DNA of 64,000 bases. It comes from Marsupella aquatica (taxonomy: Eukaryota > Plantae > Marchantiophyta). A model generated the notes under the pieces. The model had not been told where the DNA came from. It ran no database searches and worked only from the letters and a program-made list of their open reading frames with translations. A program made the position numbers and the translations under genes. Shown here one piece after another: positions 4,343 through 54,144 of the stretch. Numbering within the stretch: position 1 is the stretch's first letter; each line of letters opens with the position of its first letter. The stretch is from contig OZ316891.1 of assembly GCA_973895155.1 (NCBI GenBank), forward strand, positions 16,061,137 to 16,125,136, in the 5' to 3' direction.

Positions 4343-4353
4343 GCCTGCGCATG

Positions 4354-15386: not shown

Positions 15387-15418
<32 letters not shown>

Positions 15419-28817: not shown

Positions 28818-29807
28818 GGGGTGGTTAGCAAAGGGTGGAAGCAGGCGCTGCGCGAGGCAGTTGAGTCAGCGGCATCTTTTGGTTAAGCGTAACGACAGAA
28901 TAGCTATCATTAGGCGCCGATTAGCGGCAGTAGGAAGAATTAGGACCAAATCAGTTAGGAGCAGCCAGTGTAGGATGGAGTCCATCAACGGACCAGATTT
29001 TGTCAGTAGGCTTAGCTGCTGCCATTCCGGTTAGCACTCTTGTCGTCAACGGTCAACCAGTTAGTACGGCACGGCCAGTTAGTCAGAGGGTATTTAGTCA
29101 ATAGGTATTGCCCCGAAAGGTAGTATCCTCCGGTTCCCTTCCGCAAATGTAGTATTTAGGCTTCCTCTTTCGCTATGGAAGGGGGAGAAGGCTTAGTTAT
29201 CTCGGCAGAAGAAAAGGCGAGACACAGGGAGTCCCGGCCTGAGTAGGGTCAGAGCGCACCAAGGAGTGAGAGCTAGAGTCGAGCTTGCTGGGCAAGTGCA
29301 AGGCGGGGCCTCGTAGAAACTGGGCATCGACTGCCGTTGGGCCTGCTGACCCCCTTAGAAGTCGAGTCAACCATGTAAACTGATGCTTCGCTGAGTAAAT
29401 GTAGTCTTTTCCCTCTAATGTTTCCTCGAGCAACTGGTGTTGTGTGTATGCTTTGTCTGGGCAAAGGCGCCATTTCAAGGGACGTACCGGGTGCGGACTA
29501 ATGGTAGGGATTGCCACCCATTGCATGTCACAAGGTTCTATCGCATTGATGGCTTGAAAGCCCCAAGCCGGGAGTTAGTCCGAGTCACTAACTAAGGGAA
29601 AATTCCAGCGGTGGAAAATAAAATATACCTATGACTAGTACGAATTGCGTAAGCATTATACCAGTAAGTTTATCGACTTAGCCCAACTTAGGGCTAAACG
29701 GGGCCACTACACACCTCCTTGCCCGAACCCTCACCCCTACTGGTGGTCGAGGTTGCGCCATGGAACTAAACTGGATTTAAGGCCCAGGTTAGGGACGCGA
29801 TAGCAGG

Positions 29808-32800
29808 TACTACAGGGAGGACATGACAAAATTCGTCAAGAATTATGACGACGTCCGTCAACATACTCGGTTGTGGGGGAGGAATATGTCCCTCACAGAG
29901 GAGCGGCTCAGGATGATATTCGGGCTACCCAAGGGAGATCACCGAGTCGAATCACGGGCTCCCAGGGGCAAAGGAGCCAAGTACCAATCCTCGAGTTTTC
30001 CCTCCGAGGGGTCAGTGGACAACGGGTTCGTGATGAGGACCTGCCTCATCCGCGAGATAGCCGAGCGATTGGAGTTCCAGAGGTACGCCCTCCACATGAT
30101 GGAACCCCGGGGGGAGATCTCCGCCGCCCAAGTTAACCAGGTCGAGAACTATCGACCTAGGAAGTGGGCGTCGTACTTCGCTAAGAAGTTCCATGAAGAG
30201 ATGGAGCGGCGAAGGAAGACGCTGTACATTGGTGGGAAGGCGTATTTCGCTAGCCACATCAAGATCATTCTTGAGTGGTACGCCCGGTTTGATCGACGAA
30301 CCCTTCCCCGTGTCAACGTTACAAAGCTGGTCCCGGCTAGGTGGGTTTTCCAGGCCTTGGAGAGACGGCCCCAACCCGAGGCCCGAAGTCCAGCGGACAC
30401 GCCAGCTTCACCCACCCCCCCTCCACAAGTAGTTGTAGTAGTAACCGAAGAGGTACCGGATGGGTCGGTTGTCGCAACCATTGATGCGACCCAACAAGCC
30501 GGGCTAAGTAGAGAAGTCGGTACGACGGAGGTCTTACCCGAGCCAGGGTCTCCCAAAGACCCACCGGTGGCTATTTCGGAGGACCGGGCATGGCTGCAGG
30601 AGGACACTCCAGCCCCTTCCAACGTTACGTCCCCAGGGCTGGACGTCACTGCCCCGGCCCCCGCGCGTGTTGATGTCTGCCCGTGCCCAACTCCGGACAG
30701 GCACAACCTGGACCACCCGGAACTCTTCGTACCGGGTACATTTCTGAACGGGCTTCTGGGAGATTTCTCTCATCAAATTGCTCGGGATACCGGGGAGTTC
30801 ATGGCCCGGAAGGTAGCCTGTTTCTTCAATCAAGAGTTGGTTGCCATAGTAAAGGCAGGTTGGGCCCAGTCAGAGGCCCTTCAGAGGATAGAGCGGTACC
30901 GGGTGGAATCTGTGTACCTAAAGAACGAAGTTGCAGCTCAAGAGGCTGAGCTTCTGCAACTACGACCCAAGGTTGCAGCCGCCGATGAGTTGTTAGCAAA
31001 GGCGCACGCTCTTACCGCCCTAGCCGAACAGGCCAAAGCTGGGAACGAGGCCGAGATTACACGACTCCGGAACCAGATTGATAGTTTGAAGAATCAAACT
31101 GTCACCTGGCAGAAAGACCTGGAGGAGGCCGAGGAACGGGCCCAGCGGGACACGGCGGAGATAGCCACGCTGCAGGCCGAGGTGGCGCGGCTCTAAACCG
31201 AGGCCGAGAAGCAGGACCAGCTGGCGGGTAAACTGACGAGCGACGCCCAGCAGCTGGAGGAGGCATGTCATGAGGCAACAAAGGAGACAAACGCGGCGAG
31301 GCAAGAGAACGAATCTCTGCTGGACCAGGTCCAGCTCCTCAAGGCGGACAATGACAGGCTTCGAAGGCAGCGGGATGGCCGCTCCCATTCGGGCGGCTCT
31401 GGCAAGCGTGCCAGGCATTAGCAGCGGAGTAGGAATAGATTAGGATTAGGACTCGCTTAGTCAGGCTCTTGGGACAGGCACCTGTGTGACGCCAATGACA
31501 TGGTCCTTATTTTGTAATCTGATTAAGTAGGTTGCTGTATGCAAGGAGTAGCTATTGATATTGCATAACAATTAGCAAGATGGCAAGAATAAGGGCAATC
31601 ATGGCGTTAAGAGTAGGGAAATAAAAGCTATGTCGCGGGTGGTCGATGACCATATCTCTTTCAATATGTCACCAAATCCGGATCTGTAAAGAGCATTGGA
31701 AAGATCTGGTCAAGGCGAGTAAAATCGATATAAAACACTTGAGAAACGGAGGTGTATTAAGAAAGGTCTGGCGGCCACGCAGGCCTCATCCACCCCACCT
31801 CCACAAGTAGCCGTAGCCATGGCCAAAGTGGTACCAGACGAGGCAGTAATCGCGACCTTAGACGCGATCAACCAGGCCGGGCCGAGCGCCTAAGTCAAAG
31901 TGGTAGAAGACTTGGCCGAGCCCGAGGGTCCAGAAAATCCACCAATGGCTATTTCGGAGGAAAGGACGATGATGGAGGAGGACACTCCAGCCCCTTCCAA
32001 CACTACATCCCCAGGGCTGGATGTCACTACCCCGGCCCCCGCGCGAGTTGACGTCTGCCCATGCCCAAATCCGCACGGGCACAACCGGGACCACCCGGAA
32101 CTCTTCGTACCGGGTACATTTCTGAACGGGCTTTTGGAAGATTTCTCCCAACAGATTGCCCGGGATACCGGGGAGTTCATGGCCCAAAAGGTAGCCTACT
32201 TCTTCAATCAGGAGTTAGTTACCGCGGTAAAAGTAGACCAGGCCCAGTCGGAGGCCCTTTCTGAGGATAGAGCGGTACCGGGTTGAGTCCGTGTTCCTAA
32301 AGGATGAAGTTGCGGCTCAAGAGGCTGAGCTTCTACAACTACGACCCAAGGTTGCAGCCGCCAATGAGTTGTTAGCAAATGCGCACGCCCTTACCGCCCT
32401 AGCCGAACAGGCAAAAGCTGGGAAGGAGGCCGAGATTGCACGGCTCCAGACCCAGGTTGACAATTTGAAGAACCAAACTGTCATCTGGCAAAAAGACCTG
32501 GAGGAGGCCAAAGAGCGGGCCCAGCATGACACTGCGGAGATTGCCACCCTGCAGACCAAAGTGGCACGGCTTCAAGCCAAAGCCAAGAAATAGACCCAGG
32601 TGGTGGACAAGCTGACAAGCAATGCCCAACAACTGGAAGAGGCATGCTAGGAGGCAATTGAGGAGACGGACGCGGCAAAGTGAGAGAACAAATCTCTGCT
32701 AGACCAAGTCCAGCTCCTCAAGATGGACAACGATAGACTCCGTAGGCAGCGGGATGGCCGCTCCCACTCGGATGGCTTTGGCAAGTGCACCAGGCATTAG
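29808..32800 (+). pseudogene. LTR A ORF, 3' part, with an internal duplication (copied patch up to 31763)
   Basis: ORF 29823-31196 and fragments at 31900-32593 encode the same C-terminal region twice. Confidence 0.85.
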
Positions 32801-33686
32801 CGGAGGGTTAGGCTTAGAATAGAACTAGGAGTAGCTAAAACAGGCTGTTAGGACAGGCGTCGACCAGAAGATAGCGGCGCTGACACATTAGCCAGCCTGT
32901 GTAGAATAGGTTAGACTAATAGGACAAGCCGTAACCAGCTTAGGGAGGATATAAGTTAGCGTAGATTTGGGCACGAGGCCAGGCTGGTCCTCAGCCCTTA
33001 GTATTTAGCAGCCCCCCGATAGAGGCAAGGGGGGGATTTTAGACTCAGAAGTTGGCCATTCGCGGTACGCGTGGGGAGTCCCGAACTCGGTGAAGTATCA
33101 GAGTGCCAAGGGGAGGGTATACGACTAAGCTTGTTGTGCGAGTGCGGAGCCGGGCTCTGTTGTAGTGTATACTCCTCAACCTTGGGCCCGTGCGTTCACG
33201 AGGTGTCGGGTCAACCAATCGTAAGTGTATGATCATAAATGAATGAAATCCTTTCCCCTCAACTCCTTCGTGTAAAATCAAGATTTATGTTTATGTCTAA
33301 ATGCATGTATGAGTCTCGTGTGCAAGTATCAATGCCGGGCCGAACACGTTATGCCAACCATGCACGGGGTGCAGGTTACGGATACGGGGTTGCGAGCCGG
33401 GGTTGAGCACTTGTACTAATGGATCCGGATCGAAGGCGATAACACGAAAGCTTAGAAGTCCGTAAGCCGGGGTCGACCCCGTGTTGACTAAGGTACGTTC
33501 CGGCGGCGGAACACAAACTATACCTAGGAGGTGTCTCTACATAATAGTAAGTGCACTTAGCGCTAGTTTACGTGAGTTAGGAGCATTCAGTGCGTCCCTC
33601 CCTGCCCGAACCCTCATATTTATGAAGGATGTGCCTGTCTAAGCCAAAGCCTGGGTTAAGGCCTAGGTTGACGACGTGACAAGACT

Positions 33687-34763
33687 ACACAGGGTGGGAT
33701 GAGGTTGGCATACTTGACCAAAACCGAACTGAGGGAACATGTTGGTAACCTCACTACTTGCTTTAGGAAACAGTGTTGGCTGTTGGCACAACAGGCTCAG
33801 AAAATTTGTGCCTTGAGTGTTAGGCGAAAGAAGCTAGAAGATTTATTAGGAGTATCCCATGATAGGAAAGATTTAAGACTGTTTCTGAGAAATATTGTGA
33901 ATGGACATAGGTGTGGTGCTTTTGGTGGCAAGTAAGGGTTGTGGGATTTCCTGACAGATGTAGCTAAGAACTTGCAGAGAGTTGCTAACAGTTATCGATG
34001 CAGTAAGAGAACCAAGGCCTTTTCCCAAGCCATGTTCCAGTCAAATGAAGGTAGACAAGTGGCTCATTGTTTCCAGGCAAACCTAGGTGGTCCAGGTCTG
34101 AAGACCTTGAAACGTGATAGAGCAAAACTACCACCCTTTAGAGCTGGCATTCAAAAAGAGATATTCCAGGAGGTGTGCACAATACGAGGGTTTTCACCGT
34201 GACAGCAAATAGCAAACAGATTTACTGTTACGAGCAAAAAAATTCCTGTTACGAGCAAACTAGACAATCTAAAAATGTGTCTTTAAAAGTTACAATTTTC
34301 AAAATAATTTAAAACATGACAATTTTTTGCTAGTGTAAGGCGATACTATTACTAGCTCCGGGCGCTAGCCAAAAAATATCGACTCACAATTTTTTTTTAA
34401 TATTTCTTCCCCCAAAAAAGTTTCAAAAAAAAATTCCAGAAAAAATTCCAAATTTTTTTCCACCCGTGTGCTGTTACGAGTAACTGTTTGCTGTTTGCTG
34501 TTTGTTGTCACGATGGTTATCCCCGCAGAGTACTATGTGCATCAAAGCAGTCACTTGGAATTTCAGGAGATGTACCAGTAATGTTTGCCGAGGATGAAAC
34601 AAGGATAAAAGAGAGACCCAAGTTTGTGTTTTTGTCTTTGTAGTAAATTAGCTTGTTCTTTTGAATGTGTTGGATGAGTTTGCACATCATGAGCTGATGT
34701 CTGTATTGTATTGTGTGTGACAAATGGAAAGCTAAATATGGCACCCTCATTGGTTTCTGTGGC
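33687..34763 (+). pseudogene. P-like transposase, segment 2 (first catalytic Asp)
   Basis: LWDFLTDVAKNL...GPGLKTLKR...IFQEV [MITE] ...VPVMFAEDETRIK [decayed intron] WKAKYGTLIGFCG. Confidence 0.7.
34185..34525. mobile_element. MITE, ~340 bp
   Basis: Imperfect TIR CGAGGGTTTTCACCGTGACAGCAAATAGCAAACAG / CTGTTTGCTGTTTGTTGTCACGATGGTTATCCCCG. AT-rich core. Removing it restores the transposase frame. TSD ambiguous (CACAATA/CAGAGTA). Confidence 0.75.
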
Positions 34764-37700
34764 TGTGACACCGCCGGTACGGCGGTTAATGAGTAATTCG
34801 GTCTAACTACGCTTAGCACGCACGTTAGGAGTGTCTTAGGCCGCTATTATTAGCATAACGATAGTATTTAGGTAATCATTATGGGTAGAACATCATTAGG
34901 CAATAAGGGGGAGTTCAGGTTTGGACTGGCGGCGGGTCGCTATTCGCACACCCGGGTTACGAGCGTGGAGGGGCCCCTCCCTCGGGTCCGTATAACGAAC
35001 TTAAGGAAGCGGCCACTGACACACGCTGACTCAGACCGGCGGAGTGGTCGGTACACCACAAGCGTGAGCGGTTCAGCCTATGGGCGTCGAGGAGACATCG
35101 GAGGATCGACAAGCCCTCAAGGTATAAAAGGGGAGCCAACCCTTTGTAGTGCACCAGTCCATCAGTCCATGCGCCAGCTTCGACCCCAGCTCTCTCGTTC
35201 GCTCTAAGTCGCCACTACTATCTCCTCTGAATGTCGCACACGATCCTCTCCAGCTCGGCCATTCGATTCTGGACGCAGTTCCTATCTATCGGAAGGCACT
35301 TGGCCGACTCATTGAAACACGCCAACCCACGCTGATACGAAATCGAACACGAGTACGAGAGAGCCATCCGCCTAGCAGGACAACACCACTACATCCTTAA
35401 CTTTGACTACCCGTCTCAGAGCGAGCTTTACCGACCAGCAGAGGTATCTGGGTACTTCTTCAACGGAGACAAATATATCGGTTTCTGGGAAGCATTGCTT
35501 CGGCTTTTGAACGAGGTCTTCAATATCCCGGGTACGATCGACTTGCAACGACATCACTTCGACCACATCCCTGCTCAGGTTCAGGCATCAACAACGAGTC
35601 CAGCACTACCCGTTCGACAAGGTCGTCTGCACTCGCTTCGGAGAACTTCTACCAGCACCTACAGAGCTTCATGGGAACTCGGCCATCAACCAACATGGCC
35701 AACTCAGTCGTACCCGTACCCATACCCGTACAACCTCAGGCTCAACCTCAGGCTCAGCTTCAGCTTCAGCCTCAGCCGCAGCCTAGCCAAACCCCACCAC
35801 CGATCGCCCAGCCAGCACAAGTATGCTCCGTCATCAACGTTGTGGATCTTAGCGATGACGACAAGGCTACCCCACCCTTGACCAGGCAGCCCAGAGGAAC
35901 AAGCGCTCAAGGGGCCGACACTATATCGTCCCCACCCCCTGCTCTGACCCCAGGAGCGGCCCCGGCAGACAACATGGTGATCGTGGCCGCCCCGGGCCCG
36001 TTCCTAACGGCAGTGGCACTACCCAGGCCCGATCGGGAGGATGGGGAAGTGTCACCTTCCCCGAGCCAGTCACGGGGGAAGAAGAGGAAGGAATCCGCCA
36101 CTGCATCCGGGTTACCGTTGGCCACGGTAGCCGTAGCCAAGGTGACGATGCACCGCATGGGGGAAAACATTCACAAAAACATCCTCCATCCCAAGCATGC
36201 GGTGTACCTGAAGACTCAGGGATTCGAGCACCTCGCCTCCCTCCCCTGGAACACTTGCAGGTACTACGGGGAGGACATGACGGAGTTCGTCAGGAATTAT
36301 GACGACGCGCGTCAACATACTCAACTGCGGGGAAGGAGTATGTCCCTCACGGAAGAACGGCTCAGGATGATCTTTGGGTTACCTGAAGGTGACCATCGAG
36401 TCGAATCACGGGCTCCCGGGGGCAAGGGAGCCAAGTACCAATCTTCAAGTTTTCCCTCAGAGGGAGCAGTGGACAACGGGTTCGTGATGAGGACCTGCCT
36501 CATCCCCGAGATAGCTGAGCGACTGGAGTTCCAGAGGTACGCCCTCCACATGATGGAACCCCGGGGGGAGATCTCCGCCGCCCAAGTTATCCAGGTCGAG
36601 AACTATCGACCTAGGAAGTGGGCGTCGTACTTCACTAAGAAATTCCATGAAGAGATGGAGCGGCGAAGGAAGACGCTGTACATTGGCGGGAAGGCATATT
36701 TTGCTAGCCACATCGAGATCATTCTTGAGTGGTACGCCCGGTTTGATTGACGAACCCTTCCCCGTGTCAACGTTACAAAGCTGGTCCCAGCTAGGTGGGT
36801 TTTCCCAGCCTTGGAGAGACGGCCCCAACCCGAGGCCCGAAGTCCAGCGGACACGCTAGCTTCACCCACCCCACCTCCACAAGTAGCTGTAGTCGTAACC
36901 GAGGAGGTACCGGATGGGTCGGTTGTCGCAACCGTTGATGCAACCCAACAAGTCGGGCTAAGTACAAAAGTCGGTACGGCGGAGGTCTTACCCGAGCCCG
37001 GGTCTCCCAAAGACCCACCGGTGGCTATTCCGGAGAACCGGACATTGCTGCAGGAGGACACTCCAGCCCCTTCCAACATTACGTCCCCAGGGCTGGACGT
37101 CACTGCCCCGGCCCCCGCGCGTGTTGACGTCTGCCCGTGCCCAACTCCGGACAGGCACAACCTGGACCACCCGGAACTCTTCGTACCGGGTACATTTCTG
37201 AACGGGCTTCTGGGAGATTTCCCTCATCAAATTGCTCGGGATACCGAGGAGTTCATGGCCCGGAAGGTAGCCTGTTTCTTCAATCAAGAGTTGGTTGCCA
37301 TAGTAAAGGCAGGTTGGGCCCAGTCAGAGGCCCTTCAGAGGATAGAGCGGTATCGGGTGGAATCTGTGTACCTAAAGAACGAAGTTGCGGCTCAAGAGGC
37401 TGAGCTTCTGCAACTACGACCCAAGGTTGCAGCCGCCGATGAGTTGTTAGCAAAGGCGCACGCTCTTACCGCCCTAGCCGAACAGGCCAAAGCTGGGAAC
37501 GAGGCCGAGATTACACGACTCCGGAACCAGATTGACAGTTTGAAGAATCAAACTGTCACCTGGCAGAAAGACCTGGAGGAGGCCGAGGAACGGGCCCAGC
37601 GGGACACGGCGGAGATAGCCACGCTGCAGGCCGAGGTGGCGCGGCTCCAAACCGAGGCCGAGAAGCAGGACCAGCTGGCGGGTAAACTGACGAGCGACGC

Positions 37701-37938
37701 CCAGCAGCTGGAGGAGGCATGTCAGGAGGCAACAAAGGAGACGAACGCGGCGAGGCGAGAGAACGAATCTCTGCTGGACCAGGTCCAGCTCCTCAAGGCG
37801 GACAATGACAGGCTTCGAAGGCAGCGGGATGGCCGCTCCCATTCGGGCGGCTCTGGCAAGCGTGCCAGGCATTAGCAGCGGAGTAGGAATAGATTAGGAT
37901 TAGGACTCGCTTAGTCAGGCTCTTGGGACAGGCACCTG
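34764..37938 (+). repeat. 5' LTR (3'-truncated)
   Basis: Colinear with 43713-47557 up to GGCACCTG. I count 9 differences, all transitions, in the first ~190 bp. Confidence 0.93.
35231..37875 (+). pseudogene. LTR-encoded PMD/Transposase_32-like coiled-coil protein, 5' LTR copy (~880 codons)
   Basis: ATG 35231 (MSHTILSSSAIRFW) lies downstream of TATAAAA (35123). Two TGA stops at CGA positions and one small frameshift. Ends ...GGSGKRARH*. Confidence 0.88.
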
Positions 37939-39097
37939 TGTGACGCCAATGACATGGTCCTTATTTTGTAATCTGATTAAGTAGGTTGCTGTATGCAAGG
38001 AGTAGCTATTGATATTGCATAACAATTAGCAAGATGGCAAGAATAAGGGCAATCATGGCGTTAAGAGTAGGGAAATAAAAGCTATGTCGCGGGTGGTCGA
38101 TGACCATATCTCTTTCAATATGTCACCAAATCCGGATCTGTAAAGAGCATTGGAAAGATCTGGTCAAGGCGAGTAAAATCGATATAAAACACTTGAGAAA
38201 CGGAGGTGTATTAAGAAAGATACGGCCTGATTAGTGTGACGGGTTAACTTGTGGTCGGAATTAGCGGATTCGGCTTCAGTTTCGGGTTAACCCAAGCTCG
38301 ACCACGGCTTAGCTTATGTGAGCATGGCTTCAGCTTAGCTCAGGTCAGCACGGCTTCAGCTTAGCTTAGGTAAGCACGGCTTCAGCTTAGCTTAGGTAAG
38401 CATGGCTTTAGCTTATCTCAGGTAAGAACGGCTTCAGCTTAGCTCAGGTCAGCACGGCTTCAGCTTAGCTCAGGTTAGCATAGGTAAGCTCGGATTCGGG
38501 CTCAGCTTAGGCTAGGTTAGCGGATAGCGGATAGCGGGTAGCGGCCTAACCCGAGACCACGGGTTAGCTCTACTTGGGTTAGATAGGAGAGCTAGGTTAG
38601 CCAAACTCGGGTTAGCTATATAACTCGGGTTAGCGCAGCAGTGAGTACCCCCTCTCGGTTGCGGGGGCATAACTCTCAGTGTATTTGACCAAATCGGCTA
38701 TAATTGACCTCGTTGGAAAGAGGAGCTCAAGCCGCTTCCAACGGTGCTATCCACGCAGCAAATGGTTGAATAGAGAAATCGGGAGAGGAGGCGCAAGCTC
38801 GCAAAAACCATGGAGGAGAGCCGAATCCGAAGTACATAGCCAATTCGAGATAGAAATAAAGTTGCGAGTTAGGGTTCAGTAGTTAGAGATAGTGGCGGCT
38901 CTGTTAGGGCTGGGATGGGGCTCCAGCAGCATAGTATCCACCCATTTGGGCTCAGTATGAGAGTATATAGAGCAGCCCCCGATAGAGGCAGAGGGGGGGA
39001 CTTCAGTTGTGTGATCTCACTTAGACTGAGCAGCAGGGAGGAGCTCTGTGCAAGCAAGGCTGGACTTGGACGCTGCGTGTTGGGGAGAGCGGGTAGA
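37939..39097 (+). mobile_element. Truncated LTR C of another family inserted in the 5' LTR; right boundary approximate
   Basis: New TGTGACGCC start exactly where the two LTRs diverge. Contains TATATA + GCAGCCCCCGATAGAGGCAGAGGGGGG, similar to 33002-33035. Fused directly to mid-gag. Confidence 0.7.
38322..38477. repeat. 26-bp tandem repeat x6
   Basis: GCACGGCTTCAGCTTAGCTCAGGTCA units, head to tail. Confidence 0.93.
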
Positions 39098-42000
39098 ACT
39101 GCGTACCCCTACCCAAACAATGGCCGGAGTTTCCAGGTTATCAGTAACCCGAGCATCCCTCCTAAGCCAGGGATTTGGCGATCCCCGGTTTGTTATAACT
39201 GTGAAAAGCCAGGACACTTTGCGAGGGAATGCACCAAACCAAGACGTCAGGGAGATGGCCGAGGCACCCCACTATGTCAAGTCTGCAAAACGGAGGCTCA
39301 TTCCACGGCCAACTGTCCGTTGGTAATCGCTGCTTGAACGAGCGCAGCTAGATCGGCCCAGGCTGGACCGTCCACGAGCGATGCAGTCGTCCAAATGATT
39401 GCTGTATAATGGCAAGATGACAACACCGAGTGGGTGAATCTGGTGGACGTGGCGGAACACCCTAATCCATTGGATGAGGCCGAGTGCTACCAAGTGTCGA
39501 CAAGGGCCGAACGGAAGGAAGAGAAGACGGAGGAGAAACAAAGGAAAAAGCAAGATACTACTCCGGTGCAACCAGCGATAGATATACCCCCGGAAAAGGA
39601 CGATGACTACTGACGGGACGACTCGAAGCTATTTTTCCCCCGCATCAAAGAATTGGTAAAGAAACAGCTGGAGGCTTACGAAGCTCGGGAATACCAGAAG
39701 GCAATCGATAAGGACATCAAAGCAGCCGAGACAGCCCGACGACAGGAGCAAGAAAAGCAAGATAAACAAGAGGAAGCCAAGCAGCAGCCGAAGGAAGAAA
39801 CGAAGGAGGACTATGATATTAAGGAGGACGTGAAGAGTTGCCCGGTTACAGCGATGGTGGGGCAACTACTGCAGAACAACCCACAGTACAGACGGCAACT
39901 AAGGGAGTTGCTCATGGGTCGCCGAAGGGGGAGACTACCCCGAGTTGGGATCACGGACTGCAACATGATATGCGAGGACCTTGGAGCGCCGGACATCTCG
40001 ATTGAAATTAATAACTGTACCATCAAGATGGTTCTTGTAGACGGAGGAGCGGGAGTCAACATCATGACTGAAGAAACGTTAGTCAAGTTAGGATACCTCA
40101 CGTATCAACCCACAGCCTGAGCTATCAGATTAGCAAACGGGGCAAGGGTCCTCCCATTAGGCACGCTCACACGAGTGCTCACTCTGGTGGGAGGGGTGGA
40201 GTTCTATCTCAACTTCCTAGTCATGAGGCCGGTTCGTCCCTCCTCTTACCCGGTTCTTCTGGGCAGGCCGTGGCTGTACGGTGGCCGCGTAGTCACGGAT
40301 TGGGGAAAGAAGGAGCTACGGTTCGGGAAACCCACCGTACGGGTATCATGGGCAATGGACGATTATCAGGGAGAAACCCCACAAGGACCCGAGGAATATG
40401 ATTCGGAGACCTCGGAGGAAGAGGAACTCAATATGATTGAACTCATCTCGTCCCTGTCCGAGGAAGATGTCTTCGGAGTTGAAGCAACCCGCGAAACACA
40501 TCTCCTAAATTACCCGAGGGCTGCCATTGAGTCCACCCCAAGCAATCTACTGCCGGGGAGGAGGAAACGCACGAACAACTTGTTGAGACGGAGGACATGG
40601 CTCCAGCTAAGCAGGAAGCCGAGGCTGCTTCTACCATTGCAGAGCCTCGTGACCACGAACCAGCCCAACAACCGCCTGAGGCCAAAAACTCGAGACCGAG
40701 ACATAAGAAACGAGTCTCATGGGATCCGTCCATTCCGCAATTGGAGGAAGTAACTCCAATCCCGAAACCAATCCCGGTTCCACCCATGTACGGAGGAGTT
40801 CGGTTAGCTAAGCTTGATGCGAGCCTGGACCCGAGCCTGCGAAACCAGGTTGAAGTCATCAGGAAGGAGCACTACCGGAAGTACACCATTGGGATGGACA
40901 AATCTTTTGACCTGGGCCACGCTCTGACAGGGGAGGCTGAAAAATCCATCCAAGCTTTGCTCAAGGAATATGAAGATGTGTTTGCATGGAGTCATCATGA
41001 TTTAACAGGCGTCTCCCCCGAGTTGGGAGAACACACGATCGATCTGAACCTAGGAGCCCATGCGGTACGGCAGCGACAACGTCGCATGAACCCGAGGTAC
41101 TCCATCTTAGTGAAGGAGGAAATTGATCGTCTCCTCGCCGCCGATATCATCTACCCGGTAATGGCCAGCGACTGGGTCTCTCCCATTGTCATTGTACCAA
41201 AGAAGGGAGGTACGGATGGAAAACCTAAGATTTGTATTTGTCAGGACTACCGTAAGCTGAACGACGCAACCCGAAAAGACCATTACCCATTACCATTCAC
41301 GGATATGGTTCTAGATATGGTAGCCTGAAATGAAATCTATACATTTCTTGACGGGTATTCAGGTTATAACCAAATCTGGATTCGCCTCGCGGATCAGCTC
41401 AAAACAACTTTCACTACGGAGTGGGGGACTTTCGCATTTCGGAGGATGCCTTTCGGTCTGTGTAACGCCCCCGCCATGTTTCAGCGCCTTATGATGAATA
41501 TCTTCCACAATTTCCTATGGGAATTTCTGGAGATATTTATCGATGACTTTGCCATCTTCGGAACCGTTGCCATGCACCCCGAACACCTAAGACAAACGTT
41601 GCAACGATGCCGAGATGTTAACCTCAAACTACATCCCGCCAAATGCTTCTTCGGGGTAGAGGAGGGGGTGTTACTCGGGCATCGTGTGTCCAAACGGGGC
41701 ATTGAGGTGGACCAAGAGAAAGTTGCAGCCTGGATGGCAGTGGTGTTCCCCATGGATCAAAAAGCAGTACGATCCTTCTTGGGCTGCGTAGGGTATTACC
41801 GTCGGTTCATTAAAGATTTTGCTAAAATAGCTTTGCCCCTTACAGAGATGATGAAAAAGGACGCGGTGATCAAGGAGACCCCAAGGAGACGGGTTGCTTT
41901 CGAAGAACTCCGTAAAAGACTCACCACCGCACCTATCATGGTCACTCCAGACTGGAACAAGGAGTTCCACGTGTATGTCGACGTGTCAGGGTTCTGTATC

Positions 42001-43699
42001 GGGTCTGTGCTTAGTCAGCTTGATGCGGACGCGATCACCCCATCTACTTTGCTAGCCGTCAATTATTCGCAGCTGAAAAAAACTATTCCCCCACGGATCG
42101 AGAGGCACTGGGCATAATCTACTCATGTAAGAAGTTCTGACACTATCTGCTTGGCTACAAGGTCATCTTCCACACGGATCACGACAGCCTGAAGTACATG
42201 GTCAACAAAGCAGACGTAACGGGACGGATAGCCCGTTGGGTGCTACTTCTCCAGGAATTTAACTACGAAGTTCGGGTTCGGCCAGGAAAGGCACACCTCA
42301 ATGCCGACTTCTTTTCACGGCTGGACGGCATACCAGTCGATCAGCCAATTGATGATATTTTTCCGGATGAGGAGTTGTTCCACGTAGGGGAGGGGACACC
42401 AACATGGTACGGCTCAATAATCACCTTCCTTTTAATGGGCCGCATCCCTGACGGCATCAATCAGGAGACCGCCGCTGTGTTTTTACGGAAAGCCGGGCCT
42501 TACGTCATGATACAGGGTCACCTACATAAGGAAGGTATTAATGGGAAGTTACGATGTTGCTTAGAGTATAAGGAGACGCTTATCGTGATGCGGGCCCTAC
42601 ATGAAGAAGAAGCTGGAGGCCATTTTGCGGCGGTCACGACAGCCCAAAAGATTCTGGACTCGGGGTATTGGTGGCCTACGTTGCATCGGGATGTACAGCG
42701 CTTCATTAAGGGCTATGACTTGTGTCAGCGAGTTGGGGCCCCGAGGCGGGCTCATCATCACCCGCTCACATCTGTGCTTCCATTGGCACCATTCGAAAAA
42801 TGGGGAATTGATTATATCGGGCCGTTTACTCCCGTTACCCGAAGGCGAAGATGCAGGTACATCCTACTAGCTATTGATTACTCCACCAAGTGGGTCGAAG
42901 CGCGGGCTACGGTAAAGGACGACGCCGCAACCAGTGCCAGATTCTTATACGAACAGATTTTCACCCGATTCGGCCCGCCCTTAGAATTGGTAAGCGACCG
43001 TGGAACCCACTTCCTCAATGACACCGTAGCCCAGCTTACAGAGCGTTACCTAGTCAAGCACCGCAAGACTACCCCGTATCATCCTAAAGCCAACGGGATG
43101 GCGGAGAGAGCAAATGGTATCATTGGGAAGATCCTCAACAAAACTGTAGCTGCGCACAAAACGGATTGGGATGATAAGTTGTATGCAGCGGTGTACTCGT
43201 ATAATCTAGCTTACAAAACTACTACGAGTCACAGCCCGTACTTTCTTGTGTTCGGCCAACATTCGTTGGTGCCCGTCGAGTTTGAAGTACACACTCCATG
43301 GGTCAGCATTCGGGATCGCTTACCTGAATCTGAAAGTTCGTCAGACCGAGCTTATCAGATTGAAGCCTTGGAAGAAGCACGGCTACTAGCAACTCGACAC
43401 GCCGTGAAGAAATAGGCAACTTCGAAGAAGCAGCACGACAAAGGACTACGGAGGGTCGATGTCGTGGCAGGCGATCTAGTCCTTCTGTACGATAGTAGGT
43501 ACATGCAATTTCCAGGGAAGCTTCATACCCGGTGGTTAGGGCCCTTCCTTGTCAATCAGATCTACCGTAACGGATCTTTGGAGCTTGCGACGTATGCCGG
43601 CGATTTACTCCCCACGCGAATCAGCTACGATCGTGTAAAAAAGTACCACCATCAAGATGACGACGCCGAGAGTGATGTTCGCGAGGACGCTTCACAATT
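39098..43699 (+). pseudogene. gag (C-terminal part) and pol, with stops and frameshifts
   Basis: Two Zn knuckles (CYNCEKPGHFAREC 39191, CQVCKTEAHSTANC 39275); protease VLVDGGA (40040); RT DYRKLN / YSGYNQI / FIDD (41536); RNase H FHVYVD...RWVLLLQEF; integrase WGIDYIGP...SDRGTHF...NGMAERAN; WLGPF motif. Confidence 0.95.
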
Positions 43700-44174
43700 A
43701 AGCAGGGAGCTATGTGACGCCGCCGGTATGGCGGTTAATGAGTGATTCGGTCTAACTGCGCTTAGCACGCACGTTAGGAGTGTCTTAGGCCACTATTATT
43801 AGCATAATGACAGTATTTAGGTAATCATTATGGGTAGGACATCATTAGGCAATAAGGGGGAGTTCAGGTTTGGACTGGCGGCGGGTTGCTATTCGCACAC
43901 CCGGGTTACGAGCGTGGAGGGGCCCCTCCCTCGGGTCCGTATAACAAACTTAAGGAAGCGGCCACTGACACGTGCTGACTCAGACCGGCGGAGTGGCCGG
44001 TACACCACAAGCGTGAGCGGTTCAGCCTATGGGCATCGAGGAGACGTCGGGGGATCGACAAGCAGGTATAAAAGGGGAGCCAACCCTTTGTAGTGCACCA
44101 GTCCATCAGTCCATGTGCCAGCTTCGACCCCAGCTCTCTCGTTCGCTCTAAGTCGCCACTACTATCTCCTCTGA

Positions 44175-47100
44175 ATGTCGCACACGATCCTCTCCAGCTC
44201 GGCCATTCGATTCTGGATGCAGTTCCTATCTACCGGAAGGCACTTGGCCGACTCATTGAAACACGCCAACCCGCGCCGATACGAAATCGAACGCGAGTAC
44301 AAGAGAGCCATCCGCCTAGCAGGACGACAGGCCTCATTCACATTTGGAGGACCCAAAAGGAACCTCACACTCAAAAGTGACCATAGTTTATTATGCTTTA
44401 GGATATCATTTTTAGGGTGTAATGAGATGATATAGAAAATTTGATGTACTATACTTAATAAACATCCTATAGGTTGGTAACATTCATTAAACTATCTAGC
44501 ATTTTAGACTTTGAAGCTTTCCTTATATGTCCTTCAAAGATTGATAAAAGGACTTGTCACGCAACGGGTCACATCATTTCAGGACTCAAAAGGACTCTAA
44601 AAAATGCATTTTAGATAATGAAATTTTACCAAAGCATGCATACTAATAGCATAATCTTATATTTCAAAACTTAAATAGTGACACACAGTAAACCTTTATA
44701 TACAGGACAAAAATAATCAGTAATTTTGGCTTATTTAGGGCCATCAATAACAGGATCCCTTAAAACAGTTGAAACTTTGATGTATCTACACGGTGAGGTA
44801 GGTTACACCATGCAAAATAGTCTTGTGAAAAAATTAGACTTAAATGTCTTGAGATAAAATCATGATGAACCTTTTTCCATGTTACGAAAGTCATTTTTCA
44901 CTAAAAAAGCATGTTTTTGAGTCCTGAAAGTGGTTCCTGCAAGGTACACCCAATTGTGAATGAGGCCGACACCACTACATCCTTAACTTTGACTACCCGT
45001 CTCAGAGCGAGCTTTACCGACCAGCAGAGGTATCTGGGTACTTCTTCAACGGAGACAAATATATCGGTTTCTGGGAAGCATTGCTTCGGCTTCCGGACGA
45101 GGTCTTCAATATCCCGGATACGATCGACTTGCAACGACATCACTTCGACCACATCCCTGCTCAGGTTCGGGCTATCATCAACAGCGAGTCCAGCACTACC
45201 CGTTCAACAAGGTCGTCTGCACTCGCTTCAGAGAACTTCTACCAGCACCTACAGAGCTTCATGGGAACTCGGCCATCAACCAACATGGCCAACTCAGTCG
45301 TACCCGTACCCATACCCGTACCCATACCCGTACCCGTACCCATACCCGTACAACCTCAGGCTCAACCTTAGGCTCAGCTTCAACTTCAGCCTCAGCCGCA
45401 GCCTAGCCAAACCCCACCACCGATCGCCCAGCCAGCACAAGTACGCTCCGTTATCAACGCTGTGGATCTTAGCGATGACGACGAGGCTACCCCACCCTTG
45501 ACCAGGCGGCCCAGAGGAACAAGCGCTCAGGGGGCCGACTCTATATCGTCCCCACCCCTGCTCTGACCCCAGGAGCGGCCCCGGCAGACAACATGGTGAC
45601 CGTGGCCGCCCCGGGCCCGTTACTAACGGCAATGGCACTACCCAGGCCCGATCGGGAGGATGGGGAAGTGTCACCTTCCCCGAGCCAGTCACGGGGGAAG
45701 AAGAGGAAGGAATCCGCCACTGCATCCGGGTTACCGTTGGCCACGGTAGCCGTAGCCAAGGTGACGATGCACCGCATGGGGGAAAACGTTCACAAAAACA
45801 TCCTCCATCCCAAGCATGCGGTGTACCTGAAGACTCAGGGATTCGAGCACCTCGCCTCCCTCCCCTGGAACACTTGCAGGTACTACGGGGAGGACATGAC
45901 AGAGTTCCTCAGGAATTATGACGACGTGCATCAACATACTCGGCTGCGGGGAAGGAGTATGTCCCTCACAGAAGAACGGCTCAGGATGATCTTCGGGTTA
46001 CCCGAAGGTGACCATCGAGTTGAATCACGGGCTCCCGGGGGCAAGGGAGCCAAGTACCAATCTTCAAGTTTTCCCTCAGAGGGAGCAGTGGACAACGGGT
46101 TCGTGATGAGGACCTGCCTCATCCCTGAGATAGCTGAGCGACTGGAGTTCCAGAGGTACGCCCTCCACATGATGGAACCCCGGGGGGAGATCTCCGCCGC
46201 CCAGGTTATCCAGGTCGAGAACTATCGACCTAGGAAGTGGGCGTCGTACTTCACTAAGAAATTCCATGAAGAGATGGAGTGGCGAAGGAAGACGCTGTAC
46301 ATTGGCGGGAAGGCGTATTTCGCTAGCCACATCGAGATCATTCTTGAGTGGTACGCCCGGTTTGATCGACGAACCCTTCCCCGTGTCAACGTTACAAAGC
46401 TGGTCTCAGCTAGGTGGGTTTTCCCAGCCTTGGAGAGACGGCCCCAACCCGAGGCCCAAAGTCCAGCGGACACGCCAGCTTCACCCACCCCACCTCCACA
46501 AGTAGCTGTAGTCGTAACCGAGGAGGTATCTGATGGGTTGGGTGTCGCAACCTTTGATGCGACCCAACAAGCCGGGCTAAGTACAGAAGTCGGTACGGCG
46601 GAGGTCTTACCCGAGCCCGGGTCTCCCAAAGACCCACCGGTGGCTATTCCGGAGAACCGGACATTGCTACAGGAGGACACTCCAGCCCCTTCCAACGTTA
46701 CGTCCCCAGGGCTGGACGTCACTGCCCCGGCCCCCGCGCGTGTTGACGTCTGCCCGTGCCCAACTCCGGACAGGCACAACCTGGACCACCCGGAACTCTT
46801 CGTATCGGGTACATTTTTGAACGGGCTTCTGGGAGATTTCTCTCATCAAATTGCTCGGGATACCGGGGAGTTCATGGCCCGGAAGGTAGCCTGTTTCTTC
46901 AATCAGGAGTTGGTTGCCGCAGTAAAGGCAGGTCGGGCCCAGTCAGAGGCCCTTCAGAGGATAGAGCGGTACCGGGTGGAGTCCATGTACCTAAAGAATG
47001 AAGTTGCGGTTCAAGAGGCTGAGCTTCTACAACTACGACCCAAGGTTGCAGCCGCCGATGAGTTGTTAGCAAAGGCGCACGCTCTTACCGCCCTAGCCGA

Positions 47101-47494
47101 ACAGGCCAAAGCTGGGAACGAGGCCAAGATTACATGACTCCGGAACCAGATTGACAGTTTGAAGAATCAAATTGTCACCTGGCAGAAAGACCTGGAGGAG
47201 GCCGAGGAACGGGCCCAGCAGGACACGGCGGAGATAGCCACGCTGCAGGCCGAGGTGGCGTGGCTCCAAACCGAGGCCGAGAAGCAGGACCAGCTGGCGG
47301 GTAAACTGACGAGCGACGCCCAGCAGCTGGAGGAGGCATGTCAGGAGGCAGCAGAGGAGACGGACGCGGCGAGGTGAGAGAACAAATCTCTGCTGGACCA
47401 GGTCCAGCTCCTCAAGGCGGACAATGACAGGCTTCGAAGGCAGCGGGATGGCCGCTCCCATTCGGGCGGCTCTGGCAAGCATGCCAGGCATTAG
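44175..47494 (+). pseudogene. LTR-encoded protein, 3' LTR copy, interrupted by a MITE
   Basis: MSHTILSSSAIRFW...; 514-aa open stretch at 45593-47137; C>T-derived stops. Confidence 0.88.
44330..44967. mobile_element. MITE, 638 bp, 4-bp TSD
   Basis: TIR GGCCTCATTCACATTTGG / CCAATTGTGAATGAGGCC; TSD GACA. The empty site is visible in the 5' LTR (~35377-35392). Confidence 0.93.
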
Positions 47495-48396
47495 CAGCGG
47501 AGTAGGAATAGATTAGGATTAGGATTGGCTTAGTCAGGCTCTTGGGACAGGCACCTGCCTTAGGTACATCAGCGCTGCCATGCTGTCCAGCCTGCGTAGA
47601 TTAGGATCTTCTAATAAGACACAGCCGTTTTCCGGCCTGACTGTCAGCTTAGTTAGGACCTTAGTCAGCGAATCTTCGGCGAGAGGACACCCCGTCCCTC
47701 GGCCCTTAGTATTTAGTGCACCCCTCGGTAGAGACAAGGGGGGTTTTTAGTTTCAGAGTTGGACGTCCGCGGTATATGTGGGGAGTCCCGACCTCTGGGA
47801 ATGAAAGAGTACCAAGGGGGGGGGGTAGGACTAAGCTCGCCGGGTGAGTGCAGAGCCGGGCTCCGTTGTAGTGTGCACCCTCGGCCTTGAACCTGTTCAT
47901 TCTGGGGCTGTCGGGTCAACTAAGTGTACGCATATGTTCTCTTTGTAGTAAAATCCTTTCCCATCATTTTCCTTTGTGTAAATCGAGATTGTATGCATGT
48001 CCGCGTGTATGTGTGTGGGTTTCTCGTATATGGGTGGCAGCGCCAGGCCGAACGCACTACCCGAGACGTGCACAGGGTGCAGCCTGTGGGTAAGTGGTTG
48101 CGAGCACGGGTTGAGGACCTGTATCATCGAATCCGGATCGAAGGCGGACAGCACGAAGGCTTAGAAGCCCTTAAGCCGGGGTCGATCCTGCTATCGACTA
48201 AGGTACGTTCCGACGGTGGAACACAAACCATACCTAGGAGGTGGTTGTATTTAGCAGTATGCGCACTTAGCGCTAGTTTATGAGAATAAGGTGCATTACG
48301 TGCTTCCCTTCCTGCCCGAACCCTCAGATTTACGAGGGATGTGCCAGTCTAAGCTGAAGTCTGAGTTAAGGCCGAAGCCGACGACGTGATAGTGGC

Positions 48397-49429: not shown

Positions 49430-52400
49430 TGTGGTGCGTCCCATGGCTCCCCAAACCCAAGAAAACCCCCTTGCTCAAGCCGATTCCCGCAGGTTTCGTC
49501 CTTGGCGAGGCCGTTTCTGTGGCTTAGCGGCATGGGACGCTGCTAACTCTCCTTCTACTACTATTAACATTTTACACACATATACTGGACAGATCCTTCA
49601 TCGGGTCATGAGATACTTAGCCGGCCTATTCTAGGCCTTCCCTTGTATTCCTCTCCTGGTCTTCCATTAGGTATGTTTGGATTCCGCCGCCGGAATGATC
49701 CCCAATTGGCTTGGTTAAGCCGCTAAGACCTCTCTCAGCTCGACACATCCAACTCTCACTCCCTTGCTACTTCCCTTCATTGATGTGGGCACTCTTCACA
49801 CAAGTTAATGCGACACACAAATAGCAAAATGACTCCTTCTGACTGAGTTATACCATGCACTTGCCATACAAACAGTACATCTCATACACAAGCTCTGCGA
49901 ACTAAGCCGTGAGGCCAACTCTATTCAATTCTTAGGCATGAGGAAACATGAATATACACAAGGGTCACTGTATAACTAACCGAGAGCTTCTCTTACTACT
50001 TGATCCCAGCCTTGCTGGTGCAACTAAAAACTTGTTAAAGAAGAGGCCCTGGACTCCCGCTGCCCAGGTATTTATCCTGGCAGCGGATCTGTCCAAAACT
50101 TTGCTGCGTAAGCTTAATCTATCCTACCTGTAATCTACCTAACTGTACAACGAGGCAAGAGCACAAGTGTTGCTCTTACTAGAGGATCCGCCATCCCACT
50201 AATCTAAGTGTTAGGGCTGTCTCCTAGTCTTGATCCTAATCCTAAACTTGGAGATCTGAGCCCGCCCTGCCCACTCACGCCTCCTACCTCCACGTCCACC
50301 CTTCCTTAAAGGAACGATGCCCTTGCACCGTCACAACACTGGTGGCGGATCCTCAATGGATGCCACCAACGCTTCCCCCGCAGCCACTACCGTCGGTCCG
50401 TCCTCTGACAGATTACCTGCCCCGGACCGAGTCAACTCTTCATCGGCTTGACTGGGTCCACCCTCGGCTTTGGCCCCAGCATCGGTTACGGCCCTCGATA
50501 CGGCTTCGGCCTCCCCGGCATGTTCTACTGGAGGATCTGGTATCTCGGCTTCATCAATAGCTATCTCGGCCTCGGCCTTGCCATCCCCACCTTTTTCAAT
50601 AGGTGGATCTACTGCCGTAATCATGCCGGAGGTTGGTGCCGGGTTGACCTCCTGGGTCACAACGGCTTGGTAAGCCGTATAACTCCCAGACCCAAAAGGT
50701 TTCCGCTTCTTCTTCTTCCCTGTTTCGGTAGCTGGTCCCTTCCCCTTGCTACCTACCTCCGGCACCGGGGCGTGTGTCTCGGCTTGTGTTTCGGCCAGTA
50801 CCACTCCTGGTAACGGAGTTCCCACAATTGGACCAGATGAAGCTAAGCACTTAAATACTGCGGCCTATTTCTTCAGCTGCTCCGTTGGGTTGTCGGCCCG
50901 TTGCTGTAAGTTCTCCATCTTTCTGGTGGTTTCCTCCAACTCCTCCTGGGCTTCCTCCAGGTCCTTCCGTCCCTCCTGCAGCTCCTTTCTGGCTTCCTCC
51001 AATTCCAATTTTAAGGTAGCCCTCTCCTCCTGGGTTGCTCTTAGCTCCTTGTCGAGCTCCGCTATGACCTCAGACTCCATCTTATTCATCTTGGCATAAG
51101 TCTGGTTGAGCTGGTCATCCTTCTCACGCAGGTCGGCCTTGAAGCTGGCCATCAGGGATGCAAGCTCCTGCTGCAGCGCAATAATCCCTTGATAGGATTT
51201 CCCTAACTTGGCCTCCTTTTGCTCAAGGGCTCCACGGATATCCTTGAGCTCTCCTTTCAATGCCCTCTCCCTTCTCTGAGTCTCCGCCATGGCCCGGTTG
51301 TTGGTGGTTATGTGGGCCTCCTCTACGTCCCTCAGCTCTTGCTTCCACTTTTCCCTGTCCTTGACCGCGCTGGCCAACTCTCCTTGGGTCCGAGTCAGTT
51401 TATCCTTGATAATCAATCTGCCAGACTGAGCGGCATCCAATTGTCCTTGCATGATGTTTAGCTCATGCCGCTTAATCCGCAGCTCATCTTAGGCTTTCTT
51501 GGCCACCTACAGGTCTTCCACCTTGGCTTCCATCTCCCTAAGCTGCCGGATGACCTCGTCCTTCTTGCTTCTCTCCAAAGCCACCGCTTCTTCTAATCGG
51601 TGCTTCTCCAACATCTCCCTCTGGAAAAAAGGTCCCTGCTCCAACTCCTCCCCAAAGATGCTGAGCGCCAGGTCCCCACACATCTCCCCATACTCCATGG
51701 CTCTATCTTTAGCATAGGTGGAGTAAGTAGAAGTCATCGGCATCAACCACCTTGGCCTCTATTCCCAAGCCGCCTTGCGGATTTCTTCTACGGTGGCAAG
51801 AGGGTTGCTTCTTTTTTCGGCAAGCCGCCTGATGTCCTCCGGCCAATCTCCTCTTGGTAAATCTTTCTCCCTAGCCAGGGCTGCTTTCTCTTCCTCCCTA
51901 AGTCGCTCCTGAAATTCTTGTGCCGTCTGCTTTATGCCGTCAAAGCTCAGGGAGCAACCTCTGGTGGGGGAGACTCGGGGCTACTCTGCTGGGTGGGGTC
52001 CCCTCGAACTACTCTTGGAAGCGTGAAGATAAATCGGCCACAGGTCCTTACTCCTGGAACATGATGATCCGACCCATAGCCGGAGTTATCATTGCTGTAG
52101 TCCTCTACTGCCTCCTCCACTGCTTGGACTCCTGGCTTCCCCCTCTGTTCCCCTGGTCCTGCCGTGAAAACGGCCTCACAGATCACGGGCTCTTGTTCCT
52201 CCTCTGGTTTCCAGTCCTTTCCCTCTGCTTTCCGCGGGAAGGAGCCTTAGGCTGCTCTGCCTCCGATTCAGGGCTTGAGGCTCCCACATACATTCGAACT
52301 CCAGGCTTGTGTTCCGGCCTCCTGCTCTCCTTGGCTCCAGTAAAGGGGTTTTCCCTCCTGAGTTGGCTTAGGCCGGCCTTTGGGGCAGTGTCCTGTACCG

Positions 52401-54139: not shown

Positions 54140-54144
54140 CAAGG

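Follow-up and report, generated by a model that had tools for sequence, protein, structure and literature searches.

We describe a Ty3/gypsy retrotransposon of Marsupella aquatica (Marchantiophyta) that carries an accessory gene inside its long terminal repeat (LTR), with homologous genes in the solo LTRs beside it. The retrotransposon, element A, is a single plus-strand insertion at 34764-48391 of a 64,000-nucleotide stretch (GenBank assembly GCA_973895155.1, contig OZ316891.1, positions 16,061,137 to 16,125,136 of the forward strand), which is called the window here and whose numbering is used throughout. Extra genes of this class are known, but the place of this one is new, and it comes with a first structural clue to its function. 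The reading that we favour is a gene in the U3 region of the LTR that derives from an internal ORF and encodes a protein acting against chromatin silencing; its parts differ in strength. In its most far-reaching form, a bryophyte Gypsy clade moved a VANC-like gene for a sequence-specific anti-silencing protein into U3, and solo LTRs can de-silence the family in trans. We give this far-reaching form a probability of about 0.3.

Location of the gene within the LTR

A preliminary description of this DNA had recognized a Gypsy retrotransposon at 34764-48391. This was borne out by the 5-bp target-site duplication (TSD) GTGGC on both sides, by the order of Pfam matches to protease, reverse transcriptase, RNase H and integrase (PR-RT-RH-INT), which is colinear with the pol of the related locus L001, and by a purine tract at 43700-43712 that adjoins the integrase and the 3' LTR. 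Both LTRs begin with TGTGAC (at 34764 and 43713), as had been described; the TG...CA type of end that had also been described is not seen in the focal 3' LTR, which ends in GTGATA (decayed to TA), while other copies terminate in CA. By self-BLAST the direct repeat pairs 34764-37938 with 43713-47557, the second copy being interrupted by 638 bp, and that copy runs on to 48391 with a tail common to the copy at 31763-33679 (78% identity). Contigs from three of four sequencing runs link 34758 to 48392 via five common letters, as an empty site would; they may represent paralogous empty sites, the flank being repetitive, but the borders are still fixed by them. In three of the four runs 13 contigs with unlike flanks depart from the reference at 48389 with CA, and these, together with the empty-site joint, place the 3' LTR at 43713-48391.

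An LTR of about 4 kb, as proposed in the preliminary description, is thus present in the 3' copy (4,041 bp without a terminal inverted repeat (TIR) insertion) but not in the 5' copy. There the match stops at 37938, and the last ~830 bp, the primer-binding site (PBS) as well as most of gag have been replaced by a piece of another LTR. The two LTRs are 96.8% identical over 3,170 columns, in which 95 transitions and 7 transversions were counted (Kimura two-parameter (K2P) distance 0.033). The changes affect 6.0% of CG, 4.1% of CHG and 0.6% of CHH sites, and this concentration at CG and CHG sites is the pattern expected of methylated DNA. The pol region is decayed, with stops and a frameshift, and element A is dead, not intact.

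The same unit occurs three more times in the window, as the solo LTRs B, C and D: each of them has the ends of an LTR, a duplication on its flanks and a homologue of the gene, and none has gag-pol. Three of the four LTR units in the window have perfect TSDs and one has a TSD with a mismatch. The gene survives in B as pieces (from 14891, and at 31766-32800), in C as 771 codons with a single internal stop at 27174 (26502-28817), and in D from ~53763 to 50331 with its 3' half broken. The earlier suggestion that the gene is retained after LTR-LTR recombination is supported by three TSD-flanked solo LTRs. A further copy at 29803-31765 was rejected as independent support: measured against the 5' LTR of element A, its identity climbs from 85% to 100%, and it shares the same foreign junction. 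Lying within solo LTR B, it has the look of recent gene conversion or repair from the neighbour, with ~1.4 kb of LTR duplicated.

One could argue that the 4-kb unit is not an LTR at all but a separate or non-autonomous element or a local duplication, and that the true LTR is short and the open reading frame (ORF) internal. The focal 5' copy is indeed truncated and without a PBS, and the conversion tract at 29803-31765 demonstrates that local copying between neighbours occurs. However, self-comparison revealed no terminal direct repeat inside the 4-kb unit, and the short true LTRs with an internal ORF that had been named beforehand as a refutation were not found. Moreover, the polypurine tract (PPT) stands directly ahead of the unit, TSDs surround both the pair and the three solo units, and L001 combines matching termini and a PBS with an intact gag-pol. 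We consider this alternative scarcely credible and the location of the gene in the LTR almost certain.

The landmarks of the preliminary description were placed rightly: a TATAAAA word at 35123 and 44067 (TATA1), an ATG at 35231 and 44175, and a second TATA-like site at 47710 (TATA2), which is followed by a GC hairpin. The sense ORF of ~2.6 kb exists as a frame in both LTRs, but it is not open, being interrupted by stops, frameshifts and the TIR insertion in the copies. The 5' copy read with X at the breaks gives 880 residues, and the gene fills two thirds of the 4-kb LTR.

Whether the gene belongs to U3 or to R/U5 depends on where the genomic RNA starts. The TATA2-hairpin is present in A, B, C and the ORF-less LTR piece E, while D has a weaker look-alike; in four of four LTRs the T content of 120-nt segments peaks 465-490 nt short of the LTR end, after TATA2; and in the related locus L002 a TATA box is located ~150 nt before the PBS. 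A genomic start downstream of the gene is favoured by these three observations, and the landmarks make it probable that the gene lies in U3. If the gene instead belonged to R/U5, TATA1 would be the genomic promoter and the ORF the first cistron, as if a 5' extra ORF like that of Ogre had been taken up by the LTR, with TATA2 driving gag-pol separately or never. TATA1 is the closer of the two to a consensus TATA box, which speaks for such an arrangement. Contrastingly, it is opposed by the same three observations, since the T-rich zone follows TATA2, an LTR devoid of the ORF has the TATA2-hairpin and L002 has its TATA box near the PBS. It is also opposed by the internal homologues, which lie 3' of pol and adjoin U3, and it would require a strong-stop DNA of 3.6 kb. 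Thus we regard it as unlikely.

With the gene in U3, the genomic RNA would start past TATA2, and the gene would be carried in the 3' U3 and copied into both LTRs every round. To judge by its sequence landmarks, the gene may also have a promoter of its own: a separate mRNA of ~3.2 kb would begin at TATA1, end in the poly(A) zone of the LTR itself and be produced from 5', 3' and solo LTRs alike.

Related elements and the origin of the gene

An integrase-based scan yielded 51 related loci, 28 of which have at least 1 kb of downstream sequence. A match to the profile of the protein's core domain was found downstream of the integrase, in sense orientation, in six of the 51 loci and in eight after one iteration. 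In 11 loci the beginning of the LTR can be recognized by a conserved motif with a PPT and TG behind it, which allows the position of the gene to be read. In five of the eight core-bearing loci (L001, L003, L004, L005 and L011) this module stands right behind the integrase and the core follows it, which puts the gene inside the LTR; from the first ATG the open frames of L003, L004 and L005 reach 630, 606 and 852 codons, respectively. In two others (L007 and L010) the module lies 3' of the ORF, which makes the gene internal; L007, assembled as a circle, has an LTR of ~1 kb and the same PBS as its relatives. The eighth, L045, is ambiguous: its contig ends within the ORF, which lies behind a PPT-like tract without TG. 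L002, L008, L013 and L041 have the module at the integrase and no core was seen in them, three of these contigs ending within 1 kb. L041 is 97% identical to L003 as far as the point where the LTR gene begins, and there the alignment jumps ~1.6 kb (1428-1499 of L041 against 3240-4849 of L003) with 69 bases beyond the junction; this suggests a copy that lost most of the LTR gene.

The PBS that should directly follow the 4-kb repeat is lost from the focal copy, but it was found in L001, which has intact gag and pol and in which the 3' LTR start equals the reverse complement of the 5' LTR end. L001, L002 and L007 share one PBS of the TGGCGCC type. A tRNA-Asp-type PBS is assigned to the Athila clade. 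Contigs aligned over the LTR end of element A did not reveal a shared PBS (loose-end agreement 0.57-0.6). Neither an archaeal RNase H nor a chromodomain was matched by Pfam in the PR-RT and RH-INT intervals or behind INT, decay limiting the sensitivity of this search. By domain content alone the lineage of element A fits Athila as defined in the accessible part of PMC6317226, while Phygy or another bryophyte clade is also possible. The Athila definition also includes an extra ORF between pol and the 3' PPT, whereas in the focal element and five of the loci the ORF comes after the PPT.

The preliminary description had contrasted the gene with the internal extra ORFs of plant Gypsy elements. The difference in position holds, but the two loci with an internal homologue make it likely that the gene is a relocated relative of such ORFs. 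Descent from an internal ORF is probable, and capture of an internal 3' ORF is the simplest reading of the sequences: the 3' extra ORF of an Athila-like ancestor would have come to lie downstream of a working PPT. Integrase trees were built for 18 of the 51 loci under LG+G4 and for 23 under a mixture model, the latter without L021, L027, L045 and L048 because of frameshifts; both were midpoint-rooted. The internal-ORF elements (L010; L007 with L045) branch outside those with the PPT at the integrase. The latter form one group under LG+G4 (support 80/92), while the mixture model leaves this grouping unsettled. In the tree of the core, L001, L003, L004 and L005 join the internal L007 and L045 (100/100), apart from the proteins of the window, and the branches are long. 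PPT-like tracts precede the internal ORFs in L007, L010 and L045, and extra PPTs have been reported in Athila4 and Calypso linkers (PMC2829016, in part). A simple switch to an upstream extra PPT is conceivable as the origin, but the focal PPT stands in the sequence context of the downstream module, and behind the gene there is no relic of such a module.

Selection, predicted fold and possible function of the protein

At its N-terminus the encoded protein has a helical domain of ~120 residues; behind it follow a disordered linker that contains a basic cluster, a core of ~200 residues, a Pro-rich linker, a long coiled coil and a basic tail. The N-terminal domain is kept in A, B, C and D and in seven further proteins, four of which had gone into building the search profile.

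The LTR gene was under purifying selection between subfamilies. In the comparison of A with B over 742 codons the ratio of nonsynonymous to synonymous substitution rates (dN/dS) was 0.28 [0.21-0.34], or 0.41 [0.33-0.50] with transition correction, and the differences were distributed over the codon positions as 108/95/195. The first 115 codons from the ATG gave 0.16-0.27. Four of five control frames gave 0.95-1.68, while the fifth, which is antisense, shares third positions. For the LTR pair of element A the ratio was 0.60 [0.38-1.08], or 0.92 [0.59-1.42] when transition-corrected, which is neutral decay after insertion. The comparison of dN/dS between copies proposed in the preliminary description came out for a gene under purifying selection, the value near 1 within one insertion being the expected decay.

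Intact homologues exist. P0221, a protein of 906 aa on a 3,633-base contig, is colinear with the 880-residue protein (residues 8-879 aligned, 28% identity, E 1.7e-100), and a full HMMER scan with a three-sequence profile retrieved 90 proteins, while word-based searches with the core and with residues 1-540 of P0221 gave no match. Among 20 homologue clusters, five belong to Calypogeia and one to Riccia, and the remainder are without a name or hypothetical; all named homologues are from liverworts. Likewise, the closest named pol is that of the leafy liverwort Calypogeia fissa (66%). The core domain was found in none of 49 pattern matches in metagenome contigs, and the integrase in none of 10 in viral contigs. 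Pfam returned only coiled-coil noise for the LTR proteins of the window, with no match at the gathering score, and for these proteins and their homologues there was no match to PF03078, PF10536 or PF04195. PF20167 (Transposase_32) was matched below the cut-off by five of 42 homologues (E 1.6e-7 to 0.006).

The indication of function comes from the core. Its model, built from 54 sequences, has a predicted local distance difference test score (pLDDT) of 92.9. Foldseek against the PDB placed VANC21 first (probability 0.98, TMq 0.56, E 0.023) with the next row at E 1.9, and VIA-align against 48,161 chains gave VANC21 a Z of 8.1 (root-mean-square deviation 4.2, 204 of 220 residues aligned) with the next chain at Z 2.4. 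The match is moderate, but it spans the whole domain and stands alone; the matched structure is that of VANC21 on its target DNA. A comparison with viral folds gave no clear match (best E 0.011, TMq 0.23). The N-terminal domain, modelled from 11 sequences (pLDDT 84.5), found no clear match, the best Foldseek E being 1.9 and the best Z 5.7 among many helical bundles; its look-alikes in the Atlas reach 0.89 in clusters without names. Atlas look-alikes of the LTR protein include DUF1985 and plant mobile domain (PMD) clusters at 0.77, which we take as a lead only.

VANC proteins recognize short motifs within tandem repeats in the non-coding DNA of the family that encodes them, and they remove silent marks (PMC10398659, as far as the accessible part goes). 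In the accessible literature the VANDAL DNA transposons are the only case for which sequence-specific anti-silencing is established. VANC resembles the PMD of MAIN and MAIL1, and oligomerisation through its coiled coil has been predicted (10.1101/2024.04.02.587720; PMC13547354; 10.1101/2024.09.27.615353; all in part). By analogy, the LTR protein would enter the nucleus via its basic cluster and oligomerise via its coiled coil, and the core would bind the element's DNA, countering methylation or Polycomb silencing. In the related loci, words containing CCGG are candidate binding sites: 6-mers with CCGG exceed all 40 shuffles in the non-coding LTR of L001, L002, L003 and L005, though not of L004, and L002 has 37 copies of one such 6-mer in 2.3 kb against at most 17 in shuffles. 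Tandem duplications of 250-280 bp were also noted in the non-coding LTR DNA of L002 and L003. On the strength of the predicted fold, a nuclear, trans-acting role against chromatin silencing, or in activation, is plausible, although we place it slightly short of an even chance.

A number of observations weigh against the favoured reading. As regards the locus itself, both focal gene copies are broken, no PBS-like word was found anywhere in the window (the focal PBS is gone along with the 5' LTR end), and L003 has no TATA-like word ahead of its ORF. The capture route is burdened by the absence of a relic PPT module downstream of the gene in A-D, and the integrase and core trees are compatible with one origin or with two. 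The structural match has an E above 0.001, 10-12% identity and a Z at a level that the tool calls common; a sequence profile of 54 sequences, taken up to E 1, gave no row for VANC21 and only coiled-coil matches in the PDB; and a shared fold does not show function. No 6-mer rose above the shuffle maximum in the non-coding LTR sequence of any of A, B, C and D, so that a VANC-type cluster of targets is not seen in this family, and the LTRs of the ORF-less E and of L007 exceed their shuffles as do those of four of the related loci. Clusters of TTAG, a word initially chosen by eye, show a strand-biased excess upstream of the TATA boxes in A, B, C, E and the LTR of L007 (in one case 9 within 212 nt, where shuffles give 2.3), and this excess is absent from the unrelated repeat at 10209-11559. 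As the target of the protein, however, these clusters had to be rejected, since they are also present in the LTRs of the ORF-less E and of L007, whose ORF is internal. Finally, MAIN and MAIL1, which have a related fold, promote the silencing of transposable elements according to the accessible part of PMC5418596.

The last point leads to the possibility that the LTR protein represses its own family, much as in silencing of the MAIN/MAIL1 type, and that solo LTRs, which would go on supplying the factor, keep the copy number down. Host PMD proteins of related fold do work in silencing (PMC5418596, in part), but MAIL1 and MAIN have later been described as counteracting Polycomb silencing at target motifs (10.1101/2024.09.27.615353, in part), and the family is very abundant, with thousands of contigs in the sequencing runs. 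We find this explanation unlikely, to about the same degree as an R/U5 position of the gene. It is harder to choose against a real LTR-encoded accessory gene with another function, such as integration tethering, binding or export of genomic RNA, particle scaffolding via the coiled coil or activation of transcription. The fold similarity is moderate and silent on activity, A-D have no family-specific motif cluster, the N-terminal domain lacks a structural match, and the roles of plant extra ORFs are unsettled (PMC7264820). On the other hand, the sole solved relative is a sequence-specific DNA-binding anti-silencing factor (PMC10398659, in part), and the LTRs of the related clade bear both motif clusters and tandem duplications. 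Another function of this kind is possible, if doubtful.

Compared with known systems, the candidate anti-silencing gene stands between two groups. With the extra ORFs of plant OTA Ty3/gypsy elements (Athila ORF-1 and env-like 3' ORFs, Ogre PMD, Retand TRP28) it shares a sense gene 3' of pol, a globular domain with a coiled coil and a 5-bp TSD. The classical internal position is kept by the sister elements L007 and L010, whereas the focal gene sits within the LTR, that of solo copies included. VANC21 (PDB 9LNJ and 9LNK), from the Mu-like VANDAL DNA transposons, is the only significant structural neighbour of the core and is likewise an accessory protein encoded by a transposable element, with disordered parts and a coiled coil. 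However, the gene described here is encoded by a Gypsy LTR and not by a Mu-like element, its product has an additional N-terminal helical domain and its likeness to VANC comes from a predicted fold; also, VANC is described as dicot-specific (PMC13547354, in the part consulted), while element A is from a bryophyte. MAIN/MAIL1 and the PMD-A carried by Gypsy elements (PMC5418596, in part) are structurally linked to VANC in print. They differ from the LTR protein in that PF10536 is not matched here, in that PMD has been surveyed as an angiosperm family in the accessible literature and in the LTR location of the gene.

As for the position, non-chromovirus LTRs are known to reach ~5 kb, and extra ORFs are on record on either side of the polyprotein, none of them being placed in an LTR by the accessible text (PMC6317226, in part). 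A review places additional ORFs in the internal region (PMC7264820), and those of Retand are internal and antisense (PMC11963269, in part). The rice elements Retrosat2, RIRE3 and RIRE8 also combine long LTRs (>3 kb) with an extra ORF; ORF0 of Retrosat2 is upstream of gag-pol and not in the LTR, and the LTRs are described as regulatory only (PMC3485330, in part). No plant LTR-encoded gene was found in the largely open-access literature that we searched, including that on liverwort lineages, and the accessible parts of PMC12885004 and PMC12859917 contain nothing on LTR-located extra ORFs. The function of the extra ORFs of plant retrotransposons is an open question, which the structural match at this locus links to anti-silencing, and in P0221 and the ORFs of L003, L004 and L005 there are proteins, intact in nature, on which the idea can be tested. 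In retroviruses, mouse mammary tumour virus sag, human immunodeficiency virus nef and foamy virus bel2/bet are protein genes within or overlapping the LTR that are duplicated at replication. The LTR gene is several times as long as these, which act on animal immunity, and no homology to them is implied.

Solo-LTR formation usually counts as the end of an element's coding capacity; in this family a gene would stay behind, together with its promoter and a poly(A) zone. In liverwort genomes, LTRs of 4-4.7 kb that contain long ORFs probably go unnoticed or are taken for host genes; several homologues stand annotated as unnamed Calypogeia proteins. If the far-reaching form of our reading is true, it would describe an anti-silencing system of a retrotransposon and hint at the role of the Athila-type env-like extra ORFs. 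It would also imply that the VANC/PMD fold was present in early land-plant retrotransposons, and not that VANC arose from a captured angiosperm MAIN gene.

Features of the window and its other sequences

Table 1. Coordinates of element A, its LTR gene and the solo LTRs in the window
Feature	Position	Strand	Remarks
Left TSD GTGGC	34759..34763		identical 5-bp flanks, empty-site joint
5' LTR of element A, truncated	34764..37938	+	~830 bp of the end gone; self-BLAST; K2P 0.033 to 3' LTR
TATA1 (TATAAAA), candidate promoter of the LTR gene	35123..35129	+	also at 44067; kept in copy B at 14785; putative function
LTR gene, 5' copy, 880 codons, broken	35231..37875	+	stops 35333, 36748; frameshift ~35586
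Core domain, 5' copy	36124..36747	+	VANC21/PMD-like fold predicted from 3' copy core, 45743-46402
Piece of a different, ORF-less LTR (E) in place of the 5' LTR end	37939..39090	+	right border approximate
gag remnant (zinc knuckle) and PR-RT-RH-INT, decayed	39100..43700	+	Pfam; no archaeal RNase H or chromodomain match
Conserved pre-PPT motif and PPT directly 3' of integrase	43677..43712	+	same module in 11 of 51 related loci
3' LTR	43713..48391	+	4,679 bp (4,041 bp minus TIR insertion)
LTR gene, 3' copy, broken	44175..47494	+	TIR insertion 44330-44967; stops 45369, 47135, 47375; frameshift ~45555
TIR element, 638 bp, non-coding, AT-rich, in 3' gene copy	44330..44967		16-bp TIR starting GGCCTCATTCACA; 4-bp TSD GACA
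TATA2 and GC hairpin, candidate genomic promoter (U3/R border)	47710..47740	+	putative function
Right TSD GTGGC	48392..48396		identical 5-bp flanks
Solo LTR B, sister subfamily, split by nested insertions	13535..33681	+	~80% identical; flanks GGACT/AGACT (4 of 5 match)
Solo LTR C, nested in B, itself interrupted	15898..29802	+	TSD GCAGG
Solo LTR D, 4,710 bp, TGTG...CACA	49430..54139	-	TSD CAAGG

Core identity to A is 37% for C and 23% for D. The LTR piece E, which may belong to a short-LTR sister family, starts with TGTGACGCC like family A and contains a 26-bp tandem array; its TATA and hairpin at 38964 are 86% like the TATA2-hairpin of copy B over 42 bp. E has a high depth in the sequencing runs and no match among the 51 related loci.

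No tRNA genes were found, and there were no Rfam matches in 34500-54500. Two 1.35-kb repeats at 10209-11559 and 24804-26157, 95% identical, are probably minus-strand LTRs of another family with a TGTCAC start at ~11559. Nested in solo LTR C, minus-strand ORFs at 16962-19774 show a weak match to En/Spm (Transposase_24). On the same strand, ORFs at 2197-4369 with tandem BRCT domains and weak matches to NSD-type PHD fingers are probably a host gene or transposon cargo. An ORF at 59832-60494, also on the minus strand, has a weak match to an N6/N4 DNA methylase (E 3e-4, below the cut-off), which is unusual for a plant repeat region, and beside it long minus-strand ORFs continue to 62665. Finally, a 431-codon ORF at 12015-13310, for which Pfam gave no match, displays Cys/His patterns resembling zinc fingers.

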